DNA of 64,000 bases from a bacterium (GTDB taxonomy: Bacteria; Myxococcota_A; Bradymonadia; Bradymonadales; Bradymonadaceae). Both the position numbers and the translations under genes were made by a program. The notes under the pieces were generated by a model. That model saw nothing but the letters and a program-made list of their open reading frames with translations, had not been told where the DNA came from and did no database searches. Numbering within the stretch: the stretch's first letter is position 1; each line of letters begins with the position of its first letter. Below are positions 44,980-61,926 of the stretch, piece after piece. The stretch is from positions 92,631 through 156,630 of the forward strand of contig JAUIBR010000002.1 in NCBI GenBank assembly GCA_030427705.1, written 5' to 3'.

Positions 44980-45915
44980 ATGGTGGACAACCCAAGGAAC
45001 TCGCCCATGTCGTACGACATCCATGACCTGAAGATCGGCGAGCTACCTGCCGAACTTCCAAAGGTTGAGGGGCTCGACGAGCTAATCGGAAACACGCCGA
45101 TGCTGCGCCTTTCGCGCCATGGGAGCGAAGATAACCCTGTCTACGTAAAGCTAGAAAACACCAACCCTAGCGGCTCGATCCGTGACCGATACATCGCCGA
45201 GATTCTAGGCCGTGCGCGGCGTGCGGGGCAGATTGTGGCGGGCGATACCATTGTACTCGCGGGGATCAATGATTCGGCGGTGTCTGCAGCGTGCATCGGC
45301 TCGATTCTTCGGATGAACACACAGGTGTTTGCCCCGTTGGACACCTCGACGCGGTTGGTCCCGATCATCGAGCGTTATGGCGGTGTGGTGACGATTAGCG
45401 ACGATGACCACCCTCTTGATGATTGCGTTCAACACGCTGCCAAGTGGGCACGGGAGTCGGTAGACCGCATGTACGTTGACGGCTATCGCCGTTCCGCTGT
45501 TCGCGATTCCTACCAGGGCATCGGGACGGAGATTCTGTCCGCGCTCAAAGGAATACCGCTTGGGGGCTTTGTCACGTCTGTGACAACCGGGGCGACATTT
45601 CGTGAGGTGTCGCGTGTGTTGCGGCGAACGAATCCGCATCTTGAGGTGCGCGGCGTGCGCATTATCGAAAACGAATTCGCGACCGCTGAAGAGAACCCGT
45701 TCATCGGCCAGATCGCGCTCCAAGACATTTGGGAGTTTCGAGACGAGATCGCCAGAACCGAAGGCCTGCTGCTGGGCCCCAAAGGCGTCGCATGCGTGAA
45801 ACGTGCGGTCGAATTGGCGGCGGAGCTTCCACCGGGTCAAGCGGTGGTTGCGCTGAATCCGGACTCGGGGCAGCGCTACCTTGGCTGGGAAAACAAACCT
45901 CTGTTCAGGACATAG
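44980..45915 (+). CDS. Cysteine synthase-like fold-type-II PLP-enzyme paralog with the Schiff-base Lys replaced by Arg (NPSGSIRDR). Likely non-catalytic.
   Basis: Aligns to the CysK/CysM N-terminal motif E..NP.GS(V/I)KDR but reads ENTNPSGSIRDRYIA. The Gly-loop is degenerate (TTGATF instead of GTGGT). Confidence 0.6.
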   Translation: MVDNPRNSPMSYDIHDLKIGELPAELPKVEGLDELIGNTPMLRLSRHGSEDNPVYVKLENTNPSGSIRDRYIAEILGRARRAGQIVAGDTIVLAGINDSAVSAACIGSILRMNTQVFAPLDTSTRLVPIIERYGGVVTISDDDHPLDDCVQHAAKWARESVDRMYVDGYRRSAVRDSYQGIGTEILSALKGIPLGGFVTSVTTGATFREVSRVLRRTNPHLEVRGVRIIENEFATAEENPFIGQIALQDIWEFRDEIARTEGLLLGPKGVACVKRAVELAAELPPGQAVVALNPDSGQRYLGWENKPLFRT

Positions 45916-45917
45916 CG

Positions 45918-46847
45918 ATGCCTACGTTTCCCGTTACAGATGAGTTTGCTGCCGTCCACCCTGCCCGTCGCGTGGACTCTTTGCTTGAGCTGGTTGGAAA
46001 CACACCACTGGTACGACTTCGGCACGTGACTGAGGATCTACCGAAGTCAGTGGAGATTTGGGCGAAACTTGAGTTCATGAATCCGGGTGGCTCCATCAAA
46101 GACCGCACAGCCCGTCAGATCATCATCGACGCAATGAAAGACGGCGTGCTGCAACCAGGGCAGACACTCATCGACGCAACTACCGGAAACACCGGTGTGG
46201 CTTACGCGATGTTGGGTGCAGCATTGGGAATCGAGGTTGAGCTCGTGATGCCGGAGGGAGCTTTGGAGGCTCGCCGAAACTTAGTCACCGCGTATGGCGC
46301 GAAAGTGACCTATTGCGACGGCGATGACGACTGCGCCATCGAGCATGTGCAGACGATCGTTGAGGCAAACCCAGACCGTTACTTCTACGCGAATCAGTAC
46401 TCGAACCCGTCAAATCCAAAGGCCCATGAGTTAACCACTGGCCCCGAAATCTGGCGGCAAACCGGGGGTCGAGTCACGCATTTCATCGCGGCGACCGGCA
46501 CATCCGGCACCATCATGGGCACCAGCCGAGGGCTCAAGGCGCAAAACGCACAAATCAAGGTCATTGGCTGCCAACCATCCGAGGGCAGCCATAACCTGGA
46601 AGGCCTCAAGAACATGGCGTCAGGCCTGACCCCAGGAATCTTCAACGAAGAAGAGCTCGACGAGATGATATTTGTCGATTGCGACGACGGCATTGGGATG
46701 GCCACGAAGCTCGCAAATGAAGAAGGCATCGCAGCCGGAAACTCCGCGGGTGCCAACGTCCATGCAGCCTTGGAGCTTGCGAAAACCCTGGATGAGGGCG
46801 TTATCGTCACCATCATCTGCGACCATGCCGACCGCTACCTGGGATGA
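45918..46847 (+). CDS. cysM: Cysteine synthase (CysK/CysM family, intact active site)
   Basis: NPGGSIKDR, TTGNTGVAYA and GTSGTIMG are present. Confidence 0.82.
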   Translation: MPTFPVTDEFAAVHPARRVDSLLELVGNTPLVRLRHVTEDLPKSVEIWAKLEFMNPGGSIKDRTARQIIIDAMKDGVLQPGQTLIDATTGNTGVAYAMLGAALGIEVELVMPEGALEARRNLVTAYGAKVTYCDGDDDCAIEHVQTIVEANPDRYFYANQYSNPSNPKAHELTTGPEIWRQTGGRVTHFIAATGTSGTIMGTSRGLKAQNAQIKVIGCQPSEGSHNLEGLKNMASGLTPGIFNEEELDEMIFVDCDDGIGMATKLANEEGIAAGNSAGANVHAALELAKTLDEGVIVTIICDHADRYLG

Positions 46848-47257
46848 CACCGACCTGGTTCGCTGCCAATTGGCCTCAAATCAAGAGTTGGGTGGAATCA
46901 CAGTATCCGCACGAAGGGTGCGGACTTGTTACCGAGCGTGGCCGCTGGATCGCGTGCGATAACACAGCAGATTCCCCACGAACGTCGTATGTGATCGACC
47001 CGATGCGTGTCCTGGAGCTTGAGACGACGGGCGAGGCGCTTTGTGTCATCGTGCATAGCCATGTCGACGCCGACGCGTACTTCAGCGACGAAGACATCGC
47101 TGGAGCGACGTTTCCCGGCACGAAGTCCCCAGCGTTCCCGGGCGTCGACTACCTGGTGGTTTCGGTCAAACACAAGAAAGCCGACCAAGCAAAGCTGTTT
47201 CGCTTTGCAGAGGTCGGCGAATTCGAATGTGTCTTCGAGTTTGATTTTCTGAACTAG
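46844..47257 (+). CDS. JAMM/MPN+ metalloprotease (Mec+-like)
   Basis: E(GCGL) ... HSHVDADAYFSDED matches the JAMM motif HxHx7Sx2D. Overlaps the cysM stop (ATGA). Confidence 0.7.
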   Translation: MTPTWFAANWPQIKSWVESQYPHEGCGLVTERGRWIACDNTADSPRTSYVIDPMRVLELETTGEALCVIVHSHVDADAYFSDEDIAGATFPGTKSPAFPGVDYLVVSVKHKKADQAKLFRFAEVGEFECVFEFDFLN

Positions 47258-47970
47258 AACTCTGCGGAACCGCCGGGTTCAAGCGCGACAACTTCCGTTG
47301 GGACATCGAGGGACGACAACTCAGCTTTGAGTTGGGCCGGTGTGCCGGTTAGCAGGCCAAAGGTACCGAAGTGAGCAGGGATGACCTTCTTGACGCCGGT
47401 AAGCTGACAGGCCCACGCAGCAGCCTTGGGGTCCATCGTGAAATGGTCGCCAATGGGGAGGATTGCAACGTTTGGCTCGTGCAATCGTGCGATCCACTCC
47501 ATGTCACCGAACAGCGCGGTGTCGCCGGCCACATAGAACGAATTGCCGTCATCAAATTTCACGACGAAGCCCGCCGGTTCGCCCAAGTAGACAACGGTTC
47601 CGTCCTCTTCGGTGAAGGACGAGGAGTGCCGCGCTTCGACCATCGTGACGGAGATACCGATATCGTCCAATCGAACCGTTCCGCCAATATTCATGCCGAC
47701 CAAGCGGTCGCCATCAACGCCTTTGCTGCCAACCCAAGAGGTCAAATCGAAGATGCCGACGATTGGGCCGCTCGTGCGCTCGGCGGTGTCGAACAGATTT
47801 CCGATGTGGTCGCCGTGCCCATGAGTCACCAAGATCGCATCAGGCGCTACATCATGGAATTGTTCGGGACACGAAGGGTTGCCGGACAACCACGGGTCTA
47901 CCAAGACGGACTTTCCGCCGGACTCGAACAAAAATGTACCGTGACCTAACCAAGTGACTTTTGTGCTCAT
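47254..47970 (-). CDS. UPF0173-family metal-dependent hydrolase (MBL fold)
   Basis: MSTKVTWLGHGTFLFESGGKSVLVDP ... HGHGDH. Confidence 0.78.
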   Translation of the reverse strand: MSTKVTWLGHGTFLFESGGKSVLVDPWLSGNPSCPEQFHDVAPDAILVTHGHGDHIGNLFDTAERTSGPIVGIFDLTSWVGSKGVDGDRLVGMNIGGTVRLDDIGISVTMVEARHSSSFTEEDGTVVYLGEPAGFVVKFDDGNSFYVAGDTALFGDMEWIARLHEPNVAILPIGDHFTMDPKAAAWACQLTGVKKVIPAHFGTFGLLTGTPAQLKAELSSLDVPTEVVALEPGGSAEF

Positions 47971-48770
47971 GGATTCTCCTGTTGTGAAATGAACTCTAAA
48001 ACAAGCGACCGAAATTCTTCGGGTTTCTCAATGGGAATTGTGTGACCGCAACCTACTACTTCGACGTGGTTGCCACCACAGAGACTTGCCAACTCTTGCG
48101 CCCCGGACTTGGTGACCAACAGGTCTTCATCCGCCGAAATGCACAACGTCGGTACGCTCACTTGCTCCGCGAGGGAGGCCAAGTCTGGGTACTCCAACAT
48201 GCCATCCAGCAACGCGGACACGCCATTGGGGTCGTTTCGTTGCACCGACGCCTTCGCGATGCCAGCGATCAATCGTTGGTTGTCCTCTAGATACTGCGCG
48301 CCAAGAATGTCAGGGATAGCACACCACGACATGGCTTCGATCCCGCCAAGCTCAAGCACCTTGCGCCAACTTTGAATGATCGTCTTTGCCAGCGCAGTCG
48401 GACGGGCGGTGGCTGATGTCAGTACCAGTGCAGATGCGCGATCGAAATCGACGGCGTGCTGAAGTGCCACGCGCGCGCCGTGACTAAACCCAACTAAAAT
48501 CGGGTCGTTGATCTGAAGGCTCTCCAATAGGTCTTCCAAATCGGCAGCGTGACCGCGAAGCGTCGGCTTGCTGTCACCGATAGGGCTCTGCCCCTGCCCC
48601 CGTGCGTCATACGACAGCACGTTTACGTGCTCCCCAAGCGCACGGATATGGCTCTTCCAGTGTGCTGTCGACTGGGTCATCCCATTCAAAAGCACGATCC
48701 ATGGTCGCCCAGGCGATTCACTAATCTCGTAGTGAATGGACGCCCCCGAATGGGTTTTTAGGTCTGGCAT
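47967..48770 (-). CDS. Alpha/beta-fold hydrolase
   Basis: ATG at 48770 (MPDLKTHSG...). Nucleophile elbow VGFSHGARVA. The track ORF extends to 48896. Confidence 0.65.
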   Translation of the reverse strand: MPDLKTHSGASIHYEISESPGRPWIVLLNGMTQSTAHWKSHIRALGEHVNVLSYDARGQGQSPIGDSKPTLRGHAADLEDLLESLQINDPILVGFSHGARVALQHAVDFDRASALVLTSATARPTALAKTIIQSWRKVLELGGIEAMSWCAIPDILGAQYLEDNQRLIAGIAKASVQRNDPNGVSALLDGMLEYPDLASLAEQVSVPTLCISADEDLLVTKSGAQELASLCGGNHVEVVGCGHTIPIEKPEEFRSLVLEFISQQENP

Positions 48771-48850
48771 TTGAGAAACTCGCGTTTCGGACCGCTGAGG
48801 TATATCTTGACCCTCGCTACTTTCCAACGACCGCATGTTAGGTCGCCAAC

Positions 48851-49876
48851 GTGTTTGAGATGCAAAAAGTCTGGTGGGGTCTCGCACTAATCGCATTTAT
48901 TACTGCGTGTACCACTGCAGCTCAAACGACCGAACCCACGCCGAAGCCTCAAATAGAGCAGCCGCCGCCACCTCCGAAGAAAGAGGTAGTGGTCGAAGAA
49001 CCCAAGGCGGCACCCGGTCCGTTCACCGTAGCGATCGTCGCTGATCTGAATTCTAGCTACGGCAGCTACGAGTACACTCCGGCTGTCCATGCAGCCGCGG
49101 CATATCTGGCGCAAAGCCGTCCTGATCTTGTGCTTAGCGCTGGTGACATGGTGGCGGGTCAGAAACGCGGTTTGGATTACCCCGGTATGTGGTCGGCGTT
49201 TCACCACGCCTTCACCGACCCAGTCCTGTCAGCTGGACTGACGTTGGCTGTGACCCCGGGCAATCATGACGGTGCAAAGCAAGAGAAGTTCGCCGTTGAA
49301 CGCCGAGAGTTCGTTAACCAGTGGCAGCCCCGAAAACCTGACTTGGAGTACGTTAGCGACGAGCACTATCCACTGATGTACGCATTCCAGAAGCGAGGCG
49401 TCTTATTCATATCGCTAGACGCCACTACCCCAGGAAAGCTGTCTCCGATGCAGCATGCTTGGCTTGAGAGCATCCTGTCCAAAAGCGACGAATTCAAATC
49501 GACGATTGTCTACGGTCATGTCCCCCTGGTGCAGTTCGCAGCTGGGCGAGGACGCGAGGTGCTGGGCGATGCGAAGCTTCGTGAAACTCTGCACAGGTAC
49601 AAGGTAGATGCCTATATCACCGGCCATCATCACGCGTACTACCCGGCTCGTGATGAATCGCTCTTGATGTTGGGGGCGCCGTGTCTTGGCACAGGACCAC
49701 GGCCGCTCACCGGACACACGCAGAAGAGCCAGAAAGGTCTACTTTGGCTCACGTTCGCTGAAGATGGCTCGTTTCAGTACGAAGCTCGGATCGCACCCGA
49801 TTTCACATCGACTATCGCCGTCGATGAACTCCCCGAAAAGTTGAAGACAAAGGCAGGCACGGTCGTTCGCGACTAG
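48851..49876 (+). CDS. Lipoprotein metallophosphoesterase (calcineurin-like)
   Basis: Lipobox FITACT. Pro-rich linker. GD (SAGDMVAG), GNHD and GHHHAY motifs. Confidence 0.75.
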   Translation: MFEMQKVWWGLALIAFITACTTAAQTTEPTPKPQIEQPPPPPKKEVVVEEPKAAPGPFTVAIVADLNSSYGSYEYTPAVHAAAAYLAQSRPDLVLSAGDMVAGQKRGLDYPGMWSAFHHAFTDPVLSAGLTLAVTPGNHDGAKQEKFAVERREFVNQWQPRKPDLEYVSDEHYPLMYAFQKRGVLFISLDATTPGKLSPMQHAWLESILSKSDEFKSTIVYGHVPLVQFAAGRGREVLGDAKLRETLHRYKVDAYITGHHHAYYPARDESLLMLGAPCLGTGPRPLTGHTQKSQKGLLWLTFAEDGSFQYEARIAPDFTSTIAVDELPEKLKTKAGTVVRD

Positions 49877-52812
49877 AAACCGCCGCCGTAAACGAAGTAA
49901 AAGTCATGGATTCCGCCGGTATCGAAGCCGTACGCGTATCCCATGCGAAGATTGCCTGTGAAGTAGTAGGCGAATGTTGTGGATAACAACACCTCGGCGC
50001 CGGCCGATTTCAGGTATTCCGCGTCACCAAGGAAGCCGTTGTAGGCCGTGGCTGTGTCAAAGTAAGCCGCCCCTTTCAGCTGTCTGAAAAAGACCGGCAA
50101 CGTGCCGAAGCCCTTGTCAAAATCCAAGAGCGGAAACCGGTACTGACTTGAGATCGATTGGTAGGTCGACCCTCGCTGAATTCCAGGTGGATAGCCCGGC
50201 AGAACCTGCCGGCGCGTGGGTTCTTGGAAGATGATGCTTGAAAGAACATCTTGCGGCAGCGCCCCGCCAACCGAAAAGACAGAACCCGGTCCCGTCGCAG
50301 CCGCGGACATGCCGCCACGCAGGCCAAGGGCGAACACATGTCGGTCAATCCATGGATTTGGGAGGTAACCCGTGGCCCGATAGGTCATGGTCAAACGCTC
50401 AAACTCACTGCCGATGGTGGGATCTTGGACCGAGAATCCAACATCGGCCGTGATGCCCTGTTCTGTGCTGACTGAGCGCGCGTATCGCTCGAGATTCGAA
50501 TAGAAGACCGAAAACAGCAGCTCGTTTGTGAAATACGATTCAGGTTTGGTCGGCTCAAGGTCTCCAGGGTCCTGCTGAACCACCGGCTCGTCATTGACCG
50601 TGAGGTACTCCAACGTGAATGCCGTGGTGATGCTAAGTTGATCCCGCGTATCCAGGATTGGATATCCCAACGCGACGCGACCCGAATACTCGCGGCGCTG
50701 AATCGTCTCGAACTCACTTCCCACGAACAGCGCACGCCCTGACGGGAAGTCACTGATTCGACCCAACACCGAGAAATCCACCGGCCCACCGGTATAGGCG
50801 TAGAAGCCGCCGGCGCGGACCGAAGATTCTTCCAATTCGTTCGTGTATGTGAACGCCGTCGCCAATTGATAGATATGACGCGACGCTGGGTCCTCGCCAG
50901 ACAACGTCGCCGAGAACGCTGTGCCCGACGTCAGCACGCCGATGTCTGGCGTGAGCATCAGCGGTGCCAGCCATTTCACAGGACGATAGTCGCCGTACTT
51001 GAACTCGGCCGTATCGACCGTTGGGTACTTCGGTTCCACCAGACTGTCTTGCAAAGCTCTCTGGGAGGCGTCCGGCAGGCTTGATGGCCGCTTGAATCGC
51101 GCGATCTCGTAGCCTTTTGACGTGTATGACGTGACGTAAATCCACTTGCCGTCACGCGTGGGCTCTGGACTCCAAACGCCGTTGACCACGTTCGAGACTC
51201 GTCGCTTCTTCAGAGTTCCCGGGTCAACCTCGTAGATATTGAAGATGCCGTTTCGGTCGCTTGCGAACAGCACGTTGCCGCTGATTGGGTCAAACGTGGG
51301 ATCCAAGTCTTGCGCAAAATCGCGGGTCAGGGGTTTGAGCGCCTCTTTCTGCGGCTTGGTGATGTCGTACATCCAGATATCGCGCTGGCCGTCCTCAAGC
51401 GTCCACCAGCTAAATACGATTCGGGTTGAGTCGGGGCTGAACTGAGGCGTTGCTATCTGTTGCCACCGCGCATCCGATTTCGCCGGATGTTGATTGCCAC
51501 CGACGAGCACGACTTCGTCCCCCGAGAAATGGTCCCAACGACGCAGCACCAGCTCCATCGTTCCATTGACGTTGCGAACATAGGTAATCCACTTGCCGTC
51601 GGGCGACACCGCGGCTTCACGGGCCCGTTCGCCGTTGGTCATTCGAATCTTGCTACCGGTATCAAAATCGTACCGATACAGGTCCTGAAAGCTGTAAACA
51701 TTGAGCTTTGGCGTCGCTTGGCTGTACAGCAGGTAGCGGCCGTCTGGGGAGAACGCGCTGGGGCCAAACGAAGGCTGGATGTCCAGAAACGGCTTGGTCT
51801 TCCCTGAGTCGGGGTCATGGACGGCGTAGGCGGGCGTGTTGTGAAAATCATTGGCGTAGAAGACCACATCGTCTGTGCCGGGCCGCTGCCTGGCGTAGCC
51901 ATTCTCGCCGCCGATCTTCGTGATGTAGTTCAGCTTCGTCCGACCACCGGCAATAACGGCGACACGTTCTGCATGCGCCTTCGCTGTGGCCGCTGCCATC
52001 CACTCTTCCCAAAGCCGCTCTAACGTCTGCCCCGACACTTCCTTCGACGTGCGATTCAAGCTCCACGGCACAATTCGCGAGCCATAGATATGGTTGAATT
52101 GCATGCCGAAATCTTCGCCATGCTTGTCGAATACGTAGTCCAAGAACAGGCTGCCATACAGATAGGCGGAGGACCCAAATGGCCAGTTAACGGGTGTGCC
52201 CGTGGCCGTTCCAAGCTCAAACAGCACGCCGTCCAATGCGGCTGCACGCGACCACATCTGCCAGATGGCTCCATTAACACGCCCTCCCCGCGTCCGCTTC
52301 GACTCGTGGTAGGTGGCCAGACCCTCGATGTACCAACGGGGCGAGGTTTGGTTTGGAGAGAGCTGTTTACCGATGACGTAGTTGATGTACGGCGAGATGC
52401 CCAGGACCGTGTCCATGTGCAGGATGTGAACGTATTCGTGGTAAACAACGACGCGAATCCAGTCGTCGTAGAATCCCAGCACACCTGACGGTTCGGGGGC
52501 CATCCCGTAGATATTGATGCGATTGCGGCCATAGGTCGTCGCAGAGCCATTGGCAGAATCGATGCGGTCGATGACGTTTACATGTGTCTTGTTTCGAGGC
52601 ACCCAATTGAAAAGGGGCACCAGTGCTTCGTGCGCTTCTTCGCACGTAACCGCGACCTTGTGCGCGAGCGCCTCGAGCCCCGAATAGTAGTGCACATAGA
52701 AGTGCGGGGTTTCGATGGTGTAGTAATCGAGCGATGGATCATCGATCCCAAATGCAGGCGTTGCCGCAAGTGCCGCAAGCGCAAAAGCCAACGCCGCGAG
52801 AAGCCGTCTCAC
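49873..52812 (-). CDS. Outer-membrane tri-domain protein: Peptidase_MA_2-like zincin, TolB-like beta-propeller and C-terminal beta-barrel
   Basis: Signal peptide MRRLLAALAFALAALAATPAFG. Zincin motif VVYHEYVHILH ... YIEGLATYHES. SPDGKWITY and SPDSTRIVFS are WD40/TolB-like blades. The C-terminal roughly 350 aa has alternating amphipathic strands and ends ...VYGGGF. Confidence 0.55.
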   Translation of the reverse strand: MRRLLAALAFALAALAATPAFGIDDPSLDYYTIETPHFYVHYYSGLEALAHKVAVTCEEAHEALVPLFNWVPRNKTHVNVIDRIDSANGSATTYGRNRINIYGMAPEPSGVLGFYDDWIRVVVYHEYVHILHMDTVLGISPYINYVIGKQLSPNQTSPRWYIEGLATYHESKRTRGGRVNGAIWQMWSRAAALDGVLFELGTATGTPVNWPFGSSAYLYGSLFLDYVFDKHGEDFGMQFNHIYGSRIVPWSLNRTSKEVSGQTLERLWEEWMAAATAKAHAERVAVIAGGRTKLNYITKIGGENGYARQRPGTDDVVFYANDFHNTPAYAVHDPDSGKTKPFLDIQPSFGPSAFSPDGRYLLYSQATPKLNVYSFQDLYRYDFDTGSKIRMTNGERAREAAVSPDGKWITYVRNVNGTMELVLRRWDHFSGDEVVLVGGNQHPAKSDARWQQIATPQFSPDSTRIVFSWWTLEDGQRDIWMYDITKPQKEALKPLTRDFAQDLDPTFDPISGNVLFASDRNGIFNIYEVDPGTLKKRRVSNVVNGVWSPEPTRDGKWIYVTSYTSKGYEIARFKRPSSLPDASQRALQDSLVEPKYPTVDTAEFKYGDYRPVKWLAPLMLTPDIGVLTSGTAFSATLSGEDPASRHIYQLATAFTYTNELEESSVRAGGFYAYTGGPVDFSVLGRISDFPSGRALFVGSEFETIQRREYSGRVALGYPILDTRDQLSITTAFTLEYLTVNDEPVVQQDPGDLEPTKPESYFTNELLFSVFYSNLERYARSVSTEQGITADVGFSVQDPTIGSEFERLTMTYRATGYLPNPWIDRHVFALGLRGGMSAAATGPGSVFSVGGALPQDVLSSIIFQEPTRRQVLPGYPPGIQRGSTYQSISSQYRFPLLDFDKGFGTLPVFFRQLKGAAYFDTATAYNGFLGDAEYLKSAGAEVLLSTTFAYYFTGNLRMGYAYGFDTGGIHDFYFVYGGGF

Positions 52813-54191
52813 TTAGACGCCCCTGGCCCAAGACGGTGGCTCAGCACAATCCAATCACCACGTTCGCGAACAACCTGCCAATCCGGGTGACTCGCGATGT
52901 TTGCTGCGAACTCGTAGTCCGTCTTTTTGTTCAGCAACGCGATGCGAATACCGTACTGTTGAAACACGCCGCGCCATGTATCACCCATGCGGACTGCGGC
53001 ATGCATCACCTCGGACTTTTCATCATTCAATGCCGGATTGGGCGCAGTCGCTAGCACACGCTGTGGCGCTCGTTCAGACAGATACCAGGCTAAGACGCCA
53101 GCTGCCTCTGGAGGGTGATACACCGGCTCCAAACGACCCCACCCTGCGATGAGCTGCGCCTCTTCAACCGGCACGTTGCTCTTGATGAGTGCAACCGCGG
53201 GCGGCGTTTTCCGTGCATCCGAAAACCACAATCGAACCGTCTCCATATGGGAAAAAAGCGGCATTGTGACAATCGCGACGATCGCCGCAAAGCCAGCACC
53301 CACCGCCCATTTTGAGAACGGAGTCTCTTTCGTATCACTTGCGTGGAACGCCCACGGAAAGACAACGGCAGCTAGCCAAGGGACCGCAGAAAAAGCCGCA
53401 ACAACCGTGCCTATCATGGCAACGGCGATAGAGTCGTAGGCGGAGTTTTTGGACCGTACGCGATGAACAATGAGAGCCAGCAGGCCAACTCCGATCAACG
53501 TGCCGAACGGGTTAAACTCGAACGAGGCCAGCGTGGGAAAGACGAGCGCGCCAGCGGGATTCGCAAACGCCAATAAGATGGACGCAATCCCTGCTCCCCA
53601 AAACCAACGTTTCGCTTCGCCTGCGCCCGGTGAGACCGCCCACAATAGCGCTGGGACAACCCAAAAATGGCTATCCACATTCACCCAGAACGGCATGGCG
53701 ATGGCGGCTAGAAGCCAGTATCTCGATGCACCAGAATAGCGAACGGCCATGATGACTAGAGCGGCAACGGATATCAGAACTGCCCCAAACATCGACGGAC
53801 CGACGTACCACGTCGCGGTTGAGGCGAGGATGCCCGCGGACACCGCGATATCAGTTCGACCTCGTTCGGTCTTCGGCCAGGTGACCATGAACCCGACGGC
53901 ACCTGCGAGGATCGACCTTACGGTCGCAACCCCAGCGTCGCCGATGACTCCGTGGATTTTGAAAAGCCACCAACGAGACAGCCAGCTCTCATAGAAGACA
54001 GGCTCCTGAGCTGGAGATGTGTACACAAAGTAGTTTGCGTGAGGGATGGCCTGAAGTTGCTCAACGAGCCGGCCGATCGCGAGGTGCCACCAATAGTCAC
54101 TATTGGGAATCACCACGAGGTTAGCCGCGATCACGGCACCTGCAGCGGCCACCATCGACAGGACCAATCTGGTTTTGAAGTCGGCTTTCAA
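52809..54191 (-). CDS. Polytopic membrane protein, possibly a GT-C-fold glycosyltransferase or O-antigen-ligase-like, with a periplasmic C-terminal domain
   Basis: About 11 hydrophobic helices. N-terminal loop DYWWHLAIGRL. About 130-aa soluble C-terminus. Confidence 0.4.
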   Translation of the reverse strand: MKADFKTRLVLSMVAAAGAVIAANLVVIPNSDYWWHLAIGRLVEQLQAIPHANYFVYTSPAQEPVFYESWLSRWWLFKIHGVIGDAGVATVRSILAGAVGFMVTWPKTERGRTDIAVSAGILASTATWYVGPSMFGAVLISVAALVIMAVRYSGASRYWLLAAIAMPFWVNVDSHFWVVPALLWAVSPGAGEAKRWFWGAGIASILLAFANPAGALVFPTLASFEFNPFGTLIGVGLLALIVHRVRSKNSAYDSIAVAMIGTVVAAFSAVPWLAAVVFPWAFHASDTKETPFSKWAVGAGFAAIVAIVTMPLFSHMETVRLWFSDARKTPPAVALIKSNVPVEEAQLIAGWGRLEPVYHPPEAAGVLAWYLSERAPQRVLATAPNPALNDEKSEVMHAAVRMGDTWRGVFQQYGIRIALLNKKTDYEFAANIASHPDWQVVRERGDWIVLSHRLGPGASK

Positions 54192-54192
54192 C

Positions 54193-55917
54193 TCACAACC
54201 GTTTTCGCAACGACGAAGCTCCGAGTTTGATGGAACCCCATGCTGCCGCGGCCGGCATCAAGACCGCGATCGTCACCGCGATATAGTTTGCCATCCTTGG
54301 GGGGTTCATCGTCTTCGCCTCTAAGAGGCTTCCCAGATACATCGTTACGCGGAACGATCCAACCAACACCGAGAGGACCAAGAACATCCCCAAGATCATG
54401 TAGATGACCGCGCCAAAGCTGGACGCGATTTTGGCGGCATTGGGGTTGTGAAACTGCGGATAAACCGCACCGAATCCAACGGACATTGCCGACACACCCA
54501 ACGTGATAATCAGGATGATGAAGCTCGCCAGGAAGCAATAGGCAATGTTTTGAAGAACCAAGAGATTAGAGGCCCAGATCAGTGCTTGTCCGACGATGAG
54601 TACCGGGGCGAGGCCGCCGAGCCACTTGCCCCAGAGAAACTTCTCGAGCGTGATGGGAGCCTGCAGGATCATCCAAAATGAACGCCCCTCAACGCTGACA
54701 GTTGGAAACAAGAATCGGCCAGACAATGCCACGACCACGAAGCCGCATGCGGCAAGGTTGAAGAAGAACAGACCCACGTCGCCTAGCAGACGCTCGTCTG
54801 CGGCAATCTCAAAGTACTTATAGTTGACCAGGTAGATGACCATGATCGCGATGACGACCAGGATTTGAGACCACTGCGCGGCATCCCGGATGAAGATCTT
54901 TTGATCCTTTCGAATCAATTGCCGCAACATCGAGGTGACGTGGTCACCTTGGGCCTCTAGCTCGCCCAGACGCTCTTCAAGCGTATCGATCGAGCTCGTG
55001 GTCTGCTTCAGCATCCAATCGCGGAACGTCGTGACCAGGCTCTGGCCATGTCGCCCCTCTTGGGCCTTGCTGTATCCCCGGTAGTACCAAGGTCGGTGGA
55101 ACCAGGTGGCAATGAAGTACAGCGCAATCGGCGTGCTGTAGAGCAGCAGCAGCGGCCAAGGGTCAATGGACGTCCGGCCGTAAAGTACTGGGATGAGAGC
55201 TCCCATCGCCCAATCGCTTGGCAAATACGAAGTCGTTGGGGTCGACAGCAGGTTCAACATCTCGCCGATCGACGCGAACGACTCGGGGTTCAAAAGTCGC
55301 TCAGGTCGTAGCGCGCGGATAACCGTGAATAGGATCGCGAATCCCGCGACGCCCAGGAACAAAAACGCATCCCGGGTGCGGTTTGCGGCGAGGATATTGG
55401 TGATAAACAGCCCGACGAGGGTGGCCAATGCTGTGGGTATAGCCACGAACGGGACCAGCACGGCGATCAACATCACGTAGTAACTTGGGCCCGCACCCAC
55501 GCCGACCCCAGCCGCGATGAAGATCGGCATACCGAACAGAAAGATGACCCATGAACTCTGCGTTAGCGACTCAAGATATCGCGCGCCAAACAGCATATCT
55601 TTGGGTATCGGCTTGCTCATCAAGAACTCGAGCTCATCCGCCAAATAGAACGTGCTGAACACAGTCACGATGTTTGAAAACGCCAGCAGCCCCAAAAAGA
55701 CGAGGAACGCGATGGATAAGAGCTTCTGGATTAGCAGCTCACCCACGGGTTCGATGGTCAGCGCCTCGGTCACGATCCATAGACTGGAACGAAACAGCAT
55801 CACCCAGAAAATCAGGCTCAACGCGGTGAACGCAGGGATGCGGTACTTGCCATCCTGCTCGGAGCGCATCGATCCGCGAATCATGCGGAATTTGATTCCG
55901 ATGAGCTTCTGAATCAC
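54193..55917 (-). CDS. Large polytopic permease of the 'putative ABC exporter' type, partnered with the upstream ATPase
   Basis: 574 aa with at least 10 TM helices. Overlaps the ATPase gene stop. Confidence 0.55.
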   Translation of the reverse strand: MIQKLIGIKFRMIRGSMRSEQDGKYRIPAFTALSLIFWVMLFRSSLWIVTEALTIEPVGELLIQKLLSIAFLVFLGLLAFSNIVTVFSTFYLADELEFLMSKPIPKDMLFGARYLESLTQSSWVIFLFGMPIFIAAGVGVGAGPSYYVMLIAVLVPFVAIPTALATLVGLFITNILAANRTRDAFLFLGVAGFAILFTVIRALRPERLLNPESFASIGEMLNLLSTPTTSYLPSDWAMGALIPVLYGRTSIDPWPLLLLYSTPIALYFIATWFHRPWYYRGYSKAQEGRHGQSLVTTFRDWMLKQTTSSIDTLEERLGELEAQGDHVTSMLRQLIRKDQKIFIRDAAQWSQILVVIAIMVIYLVNYKYFEIAADERLLGDVGLFFFNLAACGFVVVALSGRFLFPTVSVEGRSFWMILQAPITLEKFLWGKWLGGLAPVLIVGQALIWASNLLVLQNIAYCFLASFIILIITLGVSAMSVGFGAVYPQFHNPNAAKIASSFGAVIYMILGMFLVLSVLVGSFRVTMYLGSLLEAKTMNPPRMANYIAVTIAVLMPAAAAWGSIKLGASSLRKRL

Positions 55918-56777
55918 GCCGCACCCTCTTCGTCGTCGTCATTCTCGTCGACCTGGCCGTCGGCGCCGGTCGAATCGAACGGGCTTGAGCCGCCGGCGAA
56001 GCGCTGAGCGACCTTCTCGGCCCGCTCTTCCTCAGACTCTTGTGTCAGGCGCAGGAACACGTTTTCCAACGAACCATCGTTCGCGCCCGACTCCATCCGA
56101 AGCTCAGAAAGGGTTCCCCGAGCAATGATGTGGCCGTGGTTCACGATCGCGATCTGGTCGCACACTTCCTCAGCGACTTCCAAGGTGTGGGTCGACAACA
56201 AAATGGTCATCCCATCGCGATGGGTCAGCTTGCGAAACAGGTCTTTGATAAGCCGGTGGCCTTTGGGGTCGAGGCCAACCATGGGCTCGTCGACGACCAA
56301 CAGCTTTGGCTCTGGGAGCAACGCGCCCGCGAAGACCAACCGCTGCTTCATGCCATGCGAGAAGCTCTCGATCAGGCTATCGGCCCACTCTGCCAGTTCG
56401 AATGTCGCCAACAATTCGCGGATGCGCTTTGCCACCGTCGTGGACTTCATCTGGTAGAGCCCACCCACAAATGACAGGTACTCAAACGCGGTAAGTTTGT
56501 CGTAGACGTAGGGCCGGTCGGGGATAAAACCCGTAACCTTCTTCGCCTCAATCGGTTCTAGATCGGTGCGATGCCCATCGATCGTGATGGTCCCTTCCGT
56601 GGGCTGCAGCAGCCCAGTAATCATGCGCAAGGTCGTGGTTTTGCCGGCACCGTTGGGTCCCAACACGCCAAAAATCTGGCCGGGCTCAACGGAAAGTTCA
56701 ATGTGGTCGACCGCCGTGAAGTTGCCATAGCGCTTCACCAAATTGTCCAAGACTACGATCGGTTCTGATTCACTCAT
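55914..56777 (-). CDS. ABC transporter ATP-binding protein
   Basis: Walker A GPNGAGKTT. Signature FSHGMKQRL. Walker B LLVVDEP. Acidic C-terminal tail. Confidence 0.9.
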   Translation of the reverse strand: MSESEPIVVLDNLVKRYGNFTAVDHIELSVEPGQIFGVLGPNGAGKTTTLRMITGLLQPTEGTITIDGHRTDLEPIEAKKVTGFIPDRPYVYDKLTAFEYLSFVGGLYQMKSTTVAKRIRELLATFELAEWADSLIESFSHGMKQRLVFAGALLPEPKLLVVDEPMVGLDPKGHRLIKDLFRKLTHRDGMTILLSTHTLEVAEEVCDQIAIVNHGHIIARGTLSELRMESGANDGSLENVFLRLTQESEEERAEKVAQRFAGGSSPFDSTGADGQVDENDDDEEGAA

Positions 56778-58282
56778 CAGTTGAAATCCGCTTCTGGAGT
56801 CACTTCAACGCGACTGATCTTCAACGCCTCAAGGTGTGGTTCGAACGTCTCCCGATCCAACACCTCTGACACGCTCAATTGAATTTGGTTAACGCCCGGA
56901 ATCAGGGTCGTCCGCGTGGGGTCCAGGTCGACGAACCGGTCGTTGTTCCACGCCTGAGCCCAGTAGCGTGGCACCCATTTGCCGTCGATTTCTTCCGCAC
57001 CCAGGACGTACCTGGCCGGCACGCCCTTCTTTCGCAGCACACCGACGGTGAGTTCAGCCATGGCCGAGCTGGTGCCCTTGCCAGAAGCAAAAGCGGCGTT
57101 ACCTGTGGCGTGTTCCGAATCGCCGTCGAACTCGATTGCATTGGCCACGTTCCGCGCGATCTTCTCGACAAGTTGAACCCCTTTAAGTTCATCGGTGTCT
57201 TCAAGAATTTTCGCGGCCGCTTCCTCGGATACGTCGGCAGGTGCGAGCTTGTACTCTTCAAGGCGTTGTTCGGTTTGCAGCTGTGGGCCCGCGCGCTCGG
57301 CAGTGTCGACCTCGGCGCTGGTGGAGGTCTTGCTGGTCGCCTTCTGCGCGCCGCTGTCCAAGATTAGGGCCAAACCCTCAGGCAGATTGGTGAGCTTGTA
57401 CTTCGAGCGTGAGGTGATGCTTCCGGCTCCGCGGATGAATCCCACGGCCTCATCGACACTAATCTCCGCGGCGCCCTTCTTCTTTGCGCTTTCAAATTTG
57501 GAGCGAAGCGCCTTCGACCGCGACAGCCCAAGCGCCGGGGGAATCCGCGCGGCTACGATTCGAAGTGGGAGTTCTTGAATGTGCACATCCCCTTTCGCAT
57601 CGACATACACGTCCAGTTCAGTCCCCGCGATTTGCTGTTTGAAGTGGTAGGTATCGACGACGGTGTCGTAGACCTCAACCTGATGCTGCCGAACGTATTC
57701 GAAGCGCATATTGGTCATCCCCATGACCATAGGGTCGAAGTACTCCTGTTCGAAGACATCTCCAGGCGTCAGAGAGCCGGACTGTGCTGCGAGCTGGTTA
57801 AACACCGAGCTCGACAATCTGGGTGGCTCCTTCAGTTGGATTCGCCGTTCGCGTTCGTTCTCGTCGATTGTGTAACTGAGCACGACCTCGTTGCCGTTGA
57901 CGGTGCCGGCCAGGTCAAAAGCAGTGAGTGCAGTCTGCACTCGCCCCGAGACCTTTCGAAGGTACGCTGCCTTGTCGACCGTAGCTTTGATGGAGGTTTC
58001 GAGCAGCTGCTCGGTGCCAAGGCTCGAGATGTTCATCAGCAGGTCGTACTCAAGCAACCACCCATCCTCGATAGGGGTGCGAGTTTCGTGAATCACGCCG
58101 ACCTGTTCGTCGTCGCGCGTCAGAATCATCCAGCTTTCGCCCGAGGTGAGCACGATCCCCGAAGGCTGCTCGCTGGCGCGCTGCTCTTCGGCGAAGTTCA
58201 CCTCGTAGACATAGAGACCCAGGACGGTCAGCCACGCGCCAACCGCAATAACGCCAACAATATCGAATGGCCGAACGCTCAA
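56777..58282 (-). CDS. N-terminally membrane-anchored transglutaminase-like-fold protein with Cys to Ser and His to Gln substitutions (predicted pseudo-enzyme)
   Basis: TM helix IVGVIAVGAWLTVLGLYVY. TGase-core-like GTSSAMAEL...GVPARYVLG...YWAQAW...VDLDPT. Confidence 0.45.
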   Translation of the reverse strand: MSVRPFDIVGVIAVGAWLTVLGLYVYEVNFAEEQRASEQPSGIVLTSGESWMILTRDDEQVGVIHETRTPIEDGWLLEYDLLMNISSLGTEQLLETSIKATVDKAAYLRKVSGRVQTALTAFDLAGTVNGNEVVLSYTIDENERERRIQLKEPPRLSSSVFNQLAAQSGSLTPGDVFEQEYFDPMVMGMTNMRFEYVRQHQVEVYDTVVDTYHFKQQIAGTELDVYVDAKGDVHIQELPLRIVAARIPPALGLSRSKALRSKFESAKKKGAAEISVDEAVGFIRGAGSITSRSKYKLTNLPEGLALILDSGAQKATSKTSTSAEVDTAERAGPQLQTEQRLEEYKLAPADVSEEAAAKILEDTDELKGVQLVEKIARNVANAIEFDGDSEHATGNAAFASGKGTSSAMAELTVGVLRKKGVPARYVLGAEEIDGKWVPRYWAQAWNNDRFVDLDPTRTTLIPGVNQIQLSVSEVLDRETFEPHLEALKISRVEVTPEADFN

Positions 58283-58394
58283 CCCTTACTCACGCAATAG
58301 AAACGGTTTGGGTTTGGTACTTGAATGACTCACCGATTTAACGGCAAGATAGTGTCACAACATTCCTGAAGTTTTGCGCCCCTGAGGATATGCC

Positions 58395-58880
58395 ATGTCC
58401 GAGAAAAAAACGACTCACTTTCAGTTTAGTCTCGGCAACATTGAGCTCGAAATCAGTGGCGAACGCGAATTCGTAGAAAGGATGTACCGCATGATCATGC
58501 GCGACATCGAGAGTTCACGCGGTACGGACGAAGAATTCCGCGAAACCATCCGCACGACGCAGAAGCTCACAGGCGTCCAACCTGAATCCAAAGAAGACAC
58601 GAAGAAAGCCATCTTGGACACCCACGGACGTGGCGAACGTCCGGTGGTTTGGGTCCATCGATGCGGTGACATGATGCACAAGATCTACATGTCCTCACCG
58701 CAGGAAATGGCGAAGGCTGAAATACTGCGAATTTTTGACACTGATTGGCTGGGTGTTGTTTTCGCCAACGACGACGCCATCAATCGAGTCCTGCCAGCAG
58801 TCGATCGCGGGCAAACACTCTGGGCCGAGCTGACTCCCGAAGGCCGACGGCGAATCGCGCAGGCCTCTGTGGACGAGTAG
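58395..58880 (+). CDS. Hypothetical protein
   Basis: Clean ATG ORF divergent from the ABC operon. No motif recognised. Confidence 0.4.
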   Translation: MSEKKTTHFQFSLGNIELEISGEREFVERMYRMIMRDIESSRGTDEEFRETIRTTQKLTGVQPESKEDTKKAILDTHGRGERPVVWVHRCGDMMHKIYMSSPQEMAKAEILRIFDTDWLGVVFANDDAINRVLPAVDRGQTLWAELTPEGRRRIAQASVDE

Positions 58881-58927
58881 TCGCTCTCGGGTTATATCGG
58901 CGCTTGTTAGCTTAACCGGAGCGCCAT

Positions 58928-60847
58928 ATGTCGACCTTTTATATCACCACCCCAATCTACTACGTAAACGGCGAGCCCCATATCGGGCACGCGTACACGA
59001 CGATTGTGGCCGATGCGATGGCTCGGCATTACCGACAGCGCGGTTACGACACCTTCTTTCTGACCGGCACTGACGAGCATGGTCTCAAGGTGCAACGCGA
59101 GGCTGAGCGCCAGGGCATCACGCCCAAAGAGCTCGCCGACCGAAACTCGGACAGCTTCAAGCGCTTGTTTGAAAAGCTCGAGCTGACGCACGACCGATTC
59201 ATCCGAACCACCGACGAAGACCACAAACACGTGGTCGAACATATCGTTCAGCGGATGAAAGACGCCGGCGACATCTACCTGGACTCGTATTCAGGCTGGT
59301 ATGCGGCGTCCGATGAGGCTTTCTACGACGAAGATGAGATTGAAGACGGCAAGGCCATTTCGTCTGGATCCGACGTCGAGTGGGTCGAAGAGGCGAGCTA
59401 CTTCTTCCGCCTCAGCAAGTACGAAAAGCCGCTGCTGAACTGGTACAAAGAGAATCACCACCACGTCCAGACCGACGCGCGACGAAACGAGGTTGCTTCG
59501 TTTGTCGACGGCGGCCTTCGCGACCTGAGCATCAGCCGGACGACCTTCGAATGGGGCATTCCCTTCCCGGCCGACCCTGAGCACGTGCTCTACGTTTGGG
59601 TTGATGCCCTGACGAACTACATCACCGGCGTCGGTGCGTTCACCAACGACGAGATGTTCAACAAGTTCTGGCCTGCTGACTGTCACCTGATTGGAAAGGA
59701 TATCCTGCGATTCCACGCGGTCTACTGGCCGGCATTCTTGATGAGCGCTGAACTTCCACTACCAAAGCAGGTTTTTGCGCATGGTTGGTGGATGAACGAA
59801 GGTCAGAAGATGAGCAAGAGTCTGGGTAACTTCCTTGACGCGTTTGAGCTCGCCGACGAGTACCCACTGGACCTCCTGCGCTATCACCTGATTCGTGAGA
59901 TTCCGCTAGGTTCCGACGGCAACTTCGTGAAGGCACGTGTCGTTGGCCGCAACAATAGTGAGCTTGCAGACAATCTAGGGAACCTGGTCAATCGCTCGAT
60001 GGCGATGACGAACAAGTTCTGCGACGGCAAAGTACCGGCTTATATCGGCACAACGGCTGAGGTCGATGTTGCCCTGAAAGCCAACGCCGAAAATGTACGG
60101 AAGGAAGTGGAAGAGGCCTTGGACCGCCGCGAAACACATCGCGCGCTGGAGCTCATCATGGGCTTCTCCGCCGACCTGAACCAGTACGTCGCGATGACGA
60201 CGCCATGGAAACTCAATAAAGAAGGCGAGACGCAGCGCTTGAACGCCGTGATGTACCACCTCTTGGAAGGTGTTCGCTGGGTGGCTGTGATGGCGCACGC
60301 CTTTATCCCACGCGCAGCTGCAGCCATCTTGAAAGCGTTTGGCATCGAGGATGAGTATCCACAGTACGACACGCTGGAATGGGGTGGCCTGGCTAACCAG
60401 ACACCGATCAACGCACCAGAAGTGTTGTTCACGAAGCTGGAACTTCCCGAGGAAGAGGCCAAGCCAGAGCCGAAGAAGGAATCGAAACCGAAGCAGGAAT
60501 CGAAGCCCAAAAACGAAGGCATCATCGAATTCGATGACTTCCTGAAGGTTGAGCTCAAGGTCGCTCACATCAAGGCGGCAGAACGTGTTGAGGGCGCTGA
60601 CAAGCTCCTGAAGCTGACGATCGACGCGGGCGAAGACGAGACGCGAACCGTCGTGGCTGGCATCGCGAAGAGCTACGAGCCAGAAGCCTTGGTCGACAAG
60701 CGCGTCGCAATGGTCGCAAACCTCAAGCCACGCAAGGTCTTTGGCGTGCTGAGCCAGGGGATGTTGTTGGCTGTCGACACAGCTGACGGCGGCTTGGAGC
60801 TGGCTGAATACAGCGCCAACGTCGCGCCAGGCACACGAATCTCCTGA
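58928..60847 (+). CDS. metG: Methionyl-tRNA synthetase with a C-terminal EMAPII-like tRNA-binding domain
   Basis: HIGHAYT. KMSKS appears in GQKMSKSLGN. The C-terminal OB-fold region is LKVAHIKAAERVEGADKLLKLTID. Confidence 0.95.
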   Translation: MSTFYITTPIYYVNGEPHIGHAYTTIVADAMARHYRQRGYDTFFLTGTDEHGLKVQREAERQGITPKELADRNSDSFKRLFEKLELTHDRFIRTTDEDHKHVVEHIVQRMKDAGDIYLDSYSGWYAASDEAFYDEDEIEDGKAISSGSDVEWVEEASYFFRLSKYEKPLLNWYKENHHHVQTDARRNEVASFVDGGLRDLSISRTTFEWGIPFPADPEHVLYVWVDALTNYITGVGAFTNDEMFNKFWPADCHLIGKDILRFHAVYWPAFLMSAELPLPKQVFAHGWWMNEGQKMSKSLGNFLDAFELADEYPLDLLRYHLIREIPLGSDGNFVKARVVGRNNSELADNLGNLVNRSMAMTNKFCDGKVPAYIGTTAEVDVALKANAENVRKEVEEALDRRETHRALELIMGFSADLNQYVAMTTPWKLNKEGETQRLNAVMYHLLEGVRWVAVMAHAFIPRAAAAILKAFGIEDEYPQYDTLEWGGLANQTPINAPEVLFTKLELPEEEAKPEPKKESKPKQESKPKNEGIIEFDDFLKVELKVAHIKAAERVEGADKLLKLTIDAGEDETRTVVAGIAKSYEPEALVDKRVAMVANLKPRKVFGVLSQGMLLAVDTADGGLELAEYSANVAPGTRIS

Positions 60848-61926
60848 TGCTTTGGACCACGCATCTCGCGCCAATCGACAACGTTGACGCGCGTATGGCC
60901 GAGTTTCTGCGCCTTGTGCCACAGGGTGGAGACGACCTCGTCTTGTCCACCCTCGCCGACCCGTACGCACCAATTCGACGGAAAGCGGCCGAGCTTGCTG
61001 CCATCCAAATGTCGGAGCCACTCAGCGATCGCCTCCTGGCCATCGCTGCTGGAGACGACGACATCGCCCTGCCGGACGAACCTGAGCATTTGGGCGCAAT
61101 CTGTCTCGCTTTGGCTTCAGAGTCCGTCTCAGCGTTGGCACGCGGGTTCTTGCTGCAATCTCTGAAACATGAATCAGGCGAGGTCCGCTATCACGCCCTG
61201 CTCGGCCTGCATAAGGCTGCACAGGATGAGGATTATCAGGACGTCCTCGGGGAGCTGTTGGATTCCGAAACAGACGCCGGCGTGATTGTGGCTGGTAGTC
61301 AGATCGCCGCACAACGCGGTTGGCTTAAGCTATCGATTGCCCTGGCGCAGTGCCGCGGTCGCGTACGTTCCGAAGACCGGTTTCAGGTCGATTTGAGCCT
61401 TGGCGAACTGTCCAACCTCGGTGCGTCTATTGACGAAGATTTGAAGATCGAAATCTTGGATTCAATCCGTAAGGCATTGAAGAAAGAAGAGACGATGGCA
61501 GCAGCGCTCAAAGGTCTGGCGGCCTGGCGAGACGCCGACAGCGCGGAGGCGATCCGTAAATCTGCTGGACGTTGGCGTGTGCACCCGCTTCTGCGCGTCG
61601 AAGCCACGCGTTCCTTGTATGTCCTGGGACAGCCAGACGCGGTCGACGAGATGAGCAAACACCTGCGCTCACGCCGCACAGACGTTCGCGGTTACGCGAT
61701 CGACAGCATCGGTGATTTGCAGATTGATGAGCTTTTTGAACCCGTGGCAGCCATCGCCAACAGTGTCGACCCTCTTGCAGATCAAGCGGTCGAGGCCGTC
61801 GCAAAGTTCGGAAAACGTGGCCAAAGCGTTCTGGACACGGTTCAGTCGACACATCCGACAGCCGCTGTTCGCAATCTCGCGAAGCAACTTCGACGCACGA
61901 TTGACTCTGAGGCGCTCGCGAAATAG
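60847..61926 (+). CDS. HEAT-repeat protein
   Basis: TGATG overlap with metG. Repeats of the PBS-lyase HEAT type: DPYAPIRRKAAELAA, SGEVRYHALLGL and RTDVRGYAIDSIG. Confidence 0.5.
   Translation: MLWTTHLAPIDNVDARMAEFLRLVPQGGDDLVLSTLADPYAPIRRKAAELAAIQMSEPLSDRLLAIAAGDDDIALPDEPEHLGAICLALASESVSALARGFLLQSLKHESGEVRYHALLGLHKAAQDEDYQDVLGELLDSETDAGVIVAGSQIAAQRGWLKLSIALAQCRGRVRSEDRFQVDLSLGELSNLGASIDEDLKIEILDSIRKALKKEETMAAALKGLAAWRDADSAEAIRKSAGRWRVHPLLRVEATRSLYVLGQPDAVDEMSKHLRSRRTDVRGYAIDSIGDLQIDELFEPVAAIANSVDPLADQAVEAVAKFGKRGQSVLDTVQSTHPTAAVRNLAKQLRRTIDSEALAK

Follow-up and report, generated by a model that had tools for sequence, protein, structure and literature searches.

Outer membrane barrels of the Omp85 type which carry PD40/TolB-like repeats were catalogued as the WD40-like Omp85 subfamily, with TolB and M1-aminopeptidase structural templates and the entry 'best aminopeptidase hit' in Table S3 (Heinz and Lithgow, 2014, Front Microbiol 5:370; PMC4104836), and this subfamily was still called uncharacterised by Hanson et al. 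(2024; PMC11116518). The same catalogue holds a 'Metallo-Omp85' class, in which PF00149 is fused to Omp85 (PMC4104836). Among the proteins with transglutaminase fold, WbmE of Bordetella bronchiseptica acts on amide bonds of the O-antigen polymer after its export by an ATP-binding cassette (ABC) transporter (PMC2615507). Proteins resembling these kinds are encoded side by side in a cluster of five genes, named g1 to g5 in the following, in a 64,000-nucleotide stretch of the Bradymonadaceae contig JAUIBR010000002.1, which was analysed at its full length and is referred to as the window. The cluster is rather likely to represent three envelope modules placed side by side in this lineage, i.e., a transglutaminase-fold protein with an ABC transporter (the triad g1-g2-g3), a membrane protein of predicted glycosyltransferase C (GT-C) fold (g4) and an outer membrane protein with peptidase domain, propeller and barrel (g5), and not one obligate machine.

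This reading is carried by the distribution of the genes. Relatives of g5, for which one genome per species was scanned, were found in at least 591 loci, nearly all of them belonging to Myxococcota, together with a few metagenome-assembled genomes of Nitrospirota, and g1-g4 adjoin g5 solely in a Bradymonadales-like subset of these loci. Elsewhere, g5 is preceded by varying genes that do not encode polytopic proteins; a 431-aa gene at this position in Polyangium was considered as a g4 homologue and rejected, since its product lacks the polytopic character and no match was obtained. The search of metagenomes with a g3 profile confirmed 576 g3 relatives, and 80 loci were kept for reading their neighbourhood. 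Here, g2 adjoins g3 in at least 47 of the 55 loci having enough flank; for g1, at least 25 of 33 were counted, a number kept too low by the thresholds. Near g3 in these 80 loci, g4 and g5 were absent, bar one Bradymonadales-like contig, and the other recurrent neighbours of the triad are UvrA, SMC, CcsA, TPR, Macro and BFN genes. Likewise, the triad is carried by two loci with a g3 identity of 39% (L084) and 31% (L085). In every Bradymonadales locus seen, g4 follows g3, and it joins the triad only in this order. The gene neighbourhood is conserved within Bradymonadales, but splits into g1-g2-g3, g4 and g5 beyond it. From the sequence-only reading, which had proposed one dedicated machine for export, modification and processing of an envelope substrate, the envelope nature of the parts can be kept, but the independent distributions of the three units speak against the single machine.

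Within the window, five long co-directional open reading frames (ORFs) run on the minus strand from 58282 to 49873. The gene g1 (56777-58282, 501 aa) overlaps g2 (55914-56777, 287 aa) by 1 nt in the junction TGATG, and g2 overlaps g3 (54193-55917, 574 aa) by 4 nt in GTGA, as does g4 (52809-54191, 460 aa) with g5 (49873-52812, 979 aa). An overlap had been claimed for every junction, which is correct for these three but not for g3/g4, where the genes are separated by a spacer of 1 nt if g4 starts at the TTG at 54191, or by 37 nt with the ATG start of the public gene call (g4 then having 448 aa). A sixth gene had been counted as well, although the list given with that count also held five; a 116-aa minus-strand ORF (54188-54538) was rejected in this role, as it sits within g3 in another frame. 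The tight packing is consistent with co-transcription, and g1-g5 are probably co-transcribed in this genome. A scan for sigma-70 promoters and terminators gave a signal no better than in shuffled sequence, and no RNA family of Rfam was matched within 47000-61000. The GC content is flat at 55-58% and thus gives no sign of a genomic island. A reading as a defence system was rejected, since PADLOC gave merely generic ATPase similarity.

The transporter part of the triad is formed by g2 and g3. The product of g2 matches ABC_tran (PF00005; E 3e-29, 103 bits), and the Walker A motif GPNGAGKT (residue 40), the signature SHGMKQR (140), the Walker B motif LLVVDEP (159) and the H-loop His were all located, by which its earlier assignment as canonical ABC ATPase is borne out. 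The best NCBIfam models, drrA, RbbA, GldA and NodI, all scored under their cut-offs, with 183.7 bits for GldA (cut-off 402.6), and the LptB model reached 144.9 bits (cut-off 240). Judged by its sequence, g2 can be assigned to the DrrA/ABC-2-partner type of ABC ATPases. The product of g3 had been described as a polytopic permease of 574 aa of the 'putative ABC exporter' type, in agreement with its match to PF16949 (ABC_tran_2; E 3e-96, 323.7 bits); relatives are named 'ABC-2 type transport system permease' by the Joint Genome Institute (JGI). About 6+6 transmembrane (TM) helices with a cytoplasmic linker between them are predicted, 11 of which appeared as strong segments and one as a weak segment in the hydropathy scan. 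An internal duplication of g3 is suggested by this topology only, as the comparison of both halves by hhalign gave a weak match (E 0.05). Neither single-sequence nor profile searches of the PDB sequences found a g3 relative with solved structure, and a literature search on PF16949, or on the pairing of a transglutaminase-like protein with an ABC-2 transporter, found nothing relevant. A natural g2::g3 fusion of 845 aa (P0184, encoded at L173 10001-12538) confirms the two proteins as partners.

The third member of the triad, g1, consists of an N-terminal TM helix (residues 8-26), a middle domain similar to DUF6134/DUF3108 and a transglutaminase-like core at the C-terminus (residues 366-455; window 56918-57187, minus strand). 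Its description as a transglutaminase-fold protein with a single TM anchor holds, given the match to Transglut_core (PF01841; E 9e-9, 36 bits against a cut-off of 23), which seven of eight g1 relatives share (best E 1e-19), and the hydropathy scan, in which a single TM segment was found. The matches of the middle domain to DUF6134 and DUF3108 come from the relatives. The flanking charges favour an orientation with the N-terminus inside and the C-terminus outside, i.e., a periplasmic C-terminal domain. Searches of PDB sequences with g1, by single sequence as well as by profile, gave no match. Two analogies were dropped, namely to McjB-like proteins of lasso-peptide systems, as no cyclase is present, and to LapG with type I secretion systems (T1SS), as membrane fusion protein (MFP) and TolC are lacking; moreover, g1 is predicted to be periplasmic. 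Of the 54 sequences of the g1 family, 47 retain Cys-His-Asp at the catalytic positions, and the sequences without this triad are almost all from Bradymonadales. A degenerate triad reading Ser-Gln-Asp had been proposed for the window; the loss of the triad was confirmed, but alignment with the relatives gives Ser405-Arg439-Asp454, and the supposed Gln is the conserved, non-catalytic Q443, four positions past the His column. In other loci of the order, the triad reads S-H-D (L087) or A-R-D (L011), the Cys segment is absent (L091), or it is absent together with a replacement of His by Tyr (L004). Besides, three truncated versions of about 347 aa without the transglutaminase core occur (L003 4526-5572, L172 8071-9114 and L173 8885-9928), and the part of g1 which is conserved in Bradymonadales comprises the TM helix and the DUF6134/DUF3108-like domain. 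As the alignments indicate, the pseudo-transglutaminase arose secondarily in a family which is catalytic as a rule, and the decay is seen in the very lineage in which g4 was acquired. Like g1 according to its predicted topology, WbmE is a periplasmic PF01841 protein with transglutaminase fold and has an ABC-2-type transporter (Wzm/Wzt) in its locus. In contrast, this locus is an O-antigen cluster of 24 genes, whereas g1-g2-g3 are found without glycan-synthesis neighbours, g3 belongs to PF16949 and not to Wzm, and the g1 of the window lacks the catalytic Cys and His. Six distant triad loci (e.g., L105 4275-4799) have a Macro-domain gene immediately upstream of the gene for the transglutaminase-like protein, and a further one lies between g5 and g4 in L004 (15266-15790).

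The outer membrane protein g5 features a Sec signal peptide, a gluzincin domain (residues ~30-290; 51943-52725, minus strand, as for all of its parts), a TolB-like beta-propeller of PD40 repeats (~300-575; 51088-51915) and a linker followed by a 16-stranded barrel of the Omp85 type (~605-979; 49876-51000) which ends in Phe. A zincin, a TolB-like propeller and a barrel with terminal Phe had been recognised before, and this was substantiated by the structure model, in which the predicted local distance difference test (pLDDT) reaches 92 and the barrel is specifically of the Omp85 type. The motif HEYVH (residues 125-129; 52426-52440) contributes H125, E126 and H129, and the motif EGLA contributes E163 (52324-52326) as third zinc ligand; all four residues are invariant across 62 relatives of 28-55% identity. 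In the fold search, the domain matches peptidases of the families M30 (lugdulysin) and M1 (ERAP1); in sequence, g5 gives a weak match to Peptidase_M9, and its relatives match BSP, DUF1570 and MA_2. With HExxH and a downstream Glu in a predicted zincin fold, g5 can be placed among the gluzincins of clan MA(E). It does not belong to TolB itself, as the TolB equivalog TIGR02800 reached 72 bits (cut-off 343) and covered the propeller blades only. The barrel family PF01103 gave no match to the g5 of the window at E <= 0.5, but ten of 14 relatives match it (best 4.5e-9), and many relatives carry precomputed matches. The Omp85 loop-6 motif, (V/I)RG(F/Y) or [VL]RG[YF], is kept among the 62 relatives, with Arg in 61, Gly in all 62 and Tyr or Phe in 61, whereas the window reads VLPGY with Pro872 (CCG, 50197-50199) at the Arg position; the same sequence recurs in an independent Logan assembly record (L001). 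No match to POTRA (PF07244) was obtained in g5 or its relatives, residues 30-575 of the model being occupied by zincin and propeller, which is the state expected for the WD40-like Omp85 subfamily.

Among proteases at Omp85 barrels, BepA is an M48 zincin with TPR repeats which degrades stalled outer membrane proteins at the BAM complex. As is predicted for g5, it combines a periplasmic zinc metalloprotease and a protein-interaction domain at an Omp85 barrel, but it is a separate soluble M48 protein docking on BamA, whereas g5 unites an M1/M30-like gluzincin, propeller and barrel in a single polypeptide. PlpD resembles g5 in having an Omp85 barrel with an N-terminal hydrolase domain, which remains periplasmic and is not secreted (PMC11116518), and this supports a periplasmic location of the zincin and propeller of g5. 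Nevertheless, PlpD is a homodimeric patatin lipase with one POTRA domain. The closest correspondence was found with the WD40-like Omp85 subfamily, as g5 likewise has PD40/TolB-like repeats N-terminal to a 16-stranded barrel of the Omp85 type, an M1-type aminopeptidase-like domain and no POTRA. The architecture of g5 is not new, as it had already been listed under this name (PMC4104836). Unlike typical members, the g5 of the window has Pro in place of the loop-6 Arg, and g5 of Bradymonadales lies beside an ABC/GT-C operon and a gene for a metallophosphoesterase (Metallophos) lipoprotein.

The polytopic g4, of 460 or 448 aa depending on its start, is predicted to end in a globular periplasmic domain. 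An AlphaFold2 model based on an alignment of 40 relatives from an exhaustive representative search reached a pLDDT of 87.8 and a predicted template modelling score (pTM) of 0.89, and its top Foldseek matches were the oligosaccharyltransferases STT3, AglB and PglB, each with probability 1.0. The GT-C fold of g4 is thus supported by structure prediction and fold search, as had been suspected from its sequence. An acidic residue in the first periplasmic loop, which together with the polytopic fold characterises GT-C proteins, is provided by D32 in the motif [DE]xWWHxxxG directly past TM1 and is kept in 31 of the 40 relatives. In sequence, on the other hand, neither g4 nor seven orthologues matched any Pfam family, including PMT, PMT_2, STT3 and other described GT-C families. 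The identity to ArnT, PglB/STT3/AglB and DPY19 is about 8-12%, the WWDYG motif is absent from g4, and no match was found among PDB sequences, profile searches included. A word-indexed homologue search recovered g4 alone, whereas the exhaustive representative search yielded a family of 532 representative sequences at E < 1e-3, for which no Pfam model exists. When 40 distant relatives were compared with Pfam, TPR and other non-GT-C families were the only ones among the 25 listed, and six of 40 sampled relatives carry C-terminal TPR repeats. Accordingly, g4 appears to belong to an undescribed GT-C family (relatives P0242-P0390; L089 2627-4786).

An explanation by one trans-envelope pathway, in which the ABC pump would export a glycan or protein, g1 and g4 would modify it and g5 would process or release it, is unlikely. 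Certainly, the genes lie close together in one direction, g4/g5 being among the coupled junctions, and their products jointly cover inner membrane, periplasm and outer membrane, as the sequence-only reading had stated and as the predictions of fold and topology bear out. Moreover, g3, g4 and g5 stay close to each other across Bradymonadales, including Bradymonas sediminis, down to a g5 identity of 41%. Still, g5 is found in hundreds of genomes of Myxococcota in which g1-g4 do not lie close to it, and in most of the distant loci the triad occurs without g4 and g5. Even within Bradymonadales the arrangement varies: g5 is co-directional with and adjacent to g4 in the window and in L003, L005, L087, L090 and L173, but four loci have unrelated genes between the two, three of them with co-directional g5 (L006, L007 and L011) and the fourth being L004. 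In L004, L091 (Microvenator marinus) and L172, g5 lies on the opposite strand and is translationally coupled to the Metallophos gene instead. Genes for donor synthesis, glycan biosynthesis or substrates were detected neither in the window nor in the related loci, by which the cluster also differs from ABC glycan-export loci such as Wzm/Wzt and TagGH, which belong to glycan-biosynthesis clusters. Besides, the flanking genes for methionyl-tRNA synthetase (MetRS), a HEAT-repeat protein, an abhydrolase and a metallo-beta-lactamase (MBL)-fold protein are equally syntenic. Since synteny in L087 and L091 spans the entire block between the MetRS gene and the MBL-fold gene, both included, the proximity of g5 does not clearly go beyond local synteny.

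Several observations weigh against a mere juxtaposition of modules. In all ten Bradymonadales loci showing both genes, inversions included, g5 is found within about 4.5 kb of g4, and Bradymonas sediminis retains g3-g4-g5 together while g1 and g2 are missing at the locus. At least 16 matches to g3 and g5 lie on equally long contigs, some of them of 8-15 kb. This persistence of g5 could mean a real functional link between exporter, GT-C protein and Omp85 protein in Bradymonadales. In one distant triad locus (L085 1484-4735), a gene for a 1083-aa protein with PD40/Tricorn propeller and amidohydrolase domain overlaps the start of the transglutaminase-like gene, and its position next to the triad, as a second case independent of g5, hints at a recurrent association of propeller-hydrolases with the triad. 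Finally, the replacement of the nearly invariant loop-6 Arg by Pro implies that the barrel of this g5 may behave differently from those of its relatives.

A small chance is also given to a mechanotransmission similar to FtsEX in place of export, in which ATP hydrolysis by g2/g3 would switch g1, a protein of transglutaminase/papain fold, and thereby control cleavage or cross-linking of peptides of the cell wall or envelope, with a regulatory or binding role being kept in Bradymonadales. FtsEX, LolCDE and MacB resemble the triad in combining an ABC ATPase and a membrane subunit with a dedicated periplasmic partner encoded alongside, and FtsEX activates papain-like NlpC/P60 hydrolases (RipC, CwlO). 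This fits g1 as an always separate, membrane-anchored partner of predicted periplasmic location, the gene of which lies directly upstream of the ATPase gene, and the intact catalytic residues of most of its relatives; furthermore, the triad occurs among housekeeping genes (UvrA, SMC, CcsA) and not in glycan clusters. Peptide bonds of the cell envelope are in line with the only characterised microbial peptidases of PF01841, which cleave pseudomurein (cited in PMC2615507). What opposes this explanation is the transporter itself, since g3 has 12 predicted TM helices with short periplasmic loops and no domain of the FtsX or MacB type, and g2 is nearest to ATPases of ABC-2 exporters of the DrrA/NodI/GldA class. 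In the Pfam scan, FtsX, MacB_PCD, HlyD (MFP) and OEP (TolC) domains were found in none of the cluster proteins, and together with the scores of the GldA and LptB models far under their cut-offs, this upholds the previous exclusion of Lol, Lpt, Gld, MacAB-TolC and T1SS.

Quite unlikely, in turn, is a pathway for outer-envelope remodelling in Bradymonadales, composed of an ancient transglutaminase-ABC triad with decayed transglutaminase chemistry, the g4 similar to oligosaccharyltransferases and ArnT, the g5 peptidase and the Metallophos lipoprotein, in which exporter and g4 would glycosylate an envelope component and g5 would process it or control its quality. Very unlikely is a role of g2/g3 and g4 of Bradymonadales as a pair of the PglK/PglB or ArnEF/ArnT kind, which would flip a polyprenyl-linked sugar and transfer it to protein or lipid, with the PNGase-related transglutaminase fold of g1 as an accessory, since the oligosaccharyltransferases among the fold matches of g4, its constant place behind g3 in all Bradymonadales loci examined, the TPR domains of some distant relatives, as in protein-modifying GT-C enzymes, and the precedent of WbmE as a periplasmic PF01841 enzyme on an ABC-exported glycan (PMC2615507) are opposed by the missing WWDYG motif and GT-C sequence family, the lack of glycan-assembly genes nearby and a triad that is widespread without any GT-C neighbour.

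If the cluster is regarded as three juxtaposed envelope modules, a separate function can be proposed for each of them. In the first, two copies of the g2 ATPase on a pseudo-dimeric 12-TM g3 permease would form an ABC-2-type exporter, and g1 would be its dedicated partner, anchored in the inner membrane and projecting the DUF6134/DUF3108-like and transglutaminase-fold domains into the periplasm. The transporter may move an envelope substrate or mechanically present it to the g1 domain, whereupon Cys-His-Asp would make or break an amide bond in most bacteria; in the window, the dead Ser-Arg-Asp triad means that g1 could only bind or scaffold. In the second module, g4 would glycosylate an acceptor at the periplasmic face with a sugar taken from a polyprenyl-phosphate-linked donor, as can be expected from all GT-C enzymes characterised so far. 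In the third, a gluzincin peptidase with the propeller as its gate would be tethered by the Omp85 barrel of g5 at the inner face of the outer membrane, where it would most plausibly trim or degrade periplasmic or outer membrane proteins.

The neighbouring genes of the cluster in the window encode MetRS, a HEAT-repeat protein, the Metallophos lipoprotein, an abhydrolase and an MBL-fold protein. The Metallophos gene (48851-49876, plus strand; calcineurin-like phosphoesterase, PF00149 E 6e-16, lipobox ITAC) is the sole further gene to overlap the block. It runs convergently towards g5, with an overlap of 4 nt at the g5 stop codon, and cannot belong to the g1-g5 transcript. It adjoins g5 in most Bradymonadales loci; in L004 (8799-9902), L091 (15937-16962) and L172 (16946-18100), it precedes g5 in the same direction and the two genes overlap. 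This neighbourhood echoes the known Metallophos-Omp85 fusions, and a functional link between phosphoesterase and Omp85 barrel is plausible, as such natural fusions of PF00149 and Omp85 were described (PMC4104836). On the other side of the cluster, a 161-aa gene (58395-58880, plus strand) is divergent from g1 at a distance of 112 nt from its start. It matches no Pfam family, homologues of 35-55% identity adjoin g1 in L003-L007, and a small unassigned ORF is located at its position in L087 and L091. Further away, a gene for a pyridoxal phosphate (PLP)-dependent enzyme of the PALP family is followed by an overlapping Prok-JAB gene (45729-47257, plus strand). Pairs of this kind are typical of pathways for cysteine or thiocarboxylates which depend on sulfur-carrier proteins.

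The individual parts of the cluster were correctly identified from its sequence, but the unity and novelty of a single trans-envelope machine were overstated. The cluster is a new combination of known kinds, from which the triad and the g4 family emerge as the most useful leads. With g3 relatives encoded in at least 576 metagenome loci, and with g1 and g2 next to g3 in the majority of the 80 loci read, the triad is widely conserved and unstudied, and among ABC-2-type transporters a partner of transglutaminase/papain fold would represent a new type of accessory protein. The g4 family offers a useful lead by its about 532 representative sequences without Pfam model, some of them fused to TPR. 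For the WD40-like Omp85 subfamily, the invariance of the gluzincin residues, a model of three domains with high confidence and the recurrent Metallophos lipoprotein neighbour are added; should the remodelling pathway prove true, it would provide the first functional context for this subfamily. All of these leads are testable in cultured Bradymonadales, namely Bradymonas sediminis, Persicimonas caeni and Microvenator marinus.

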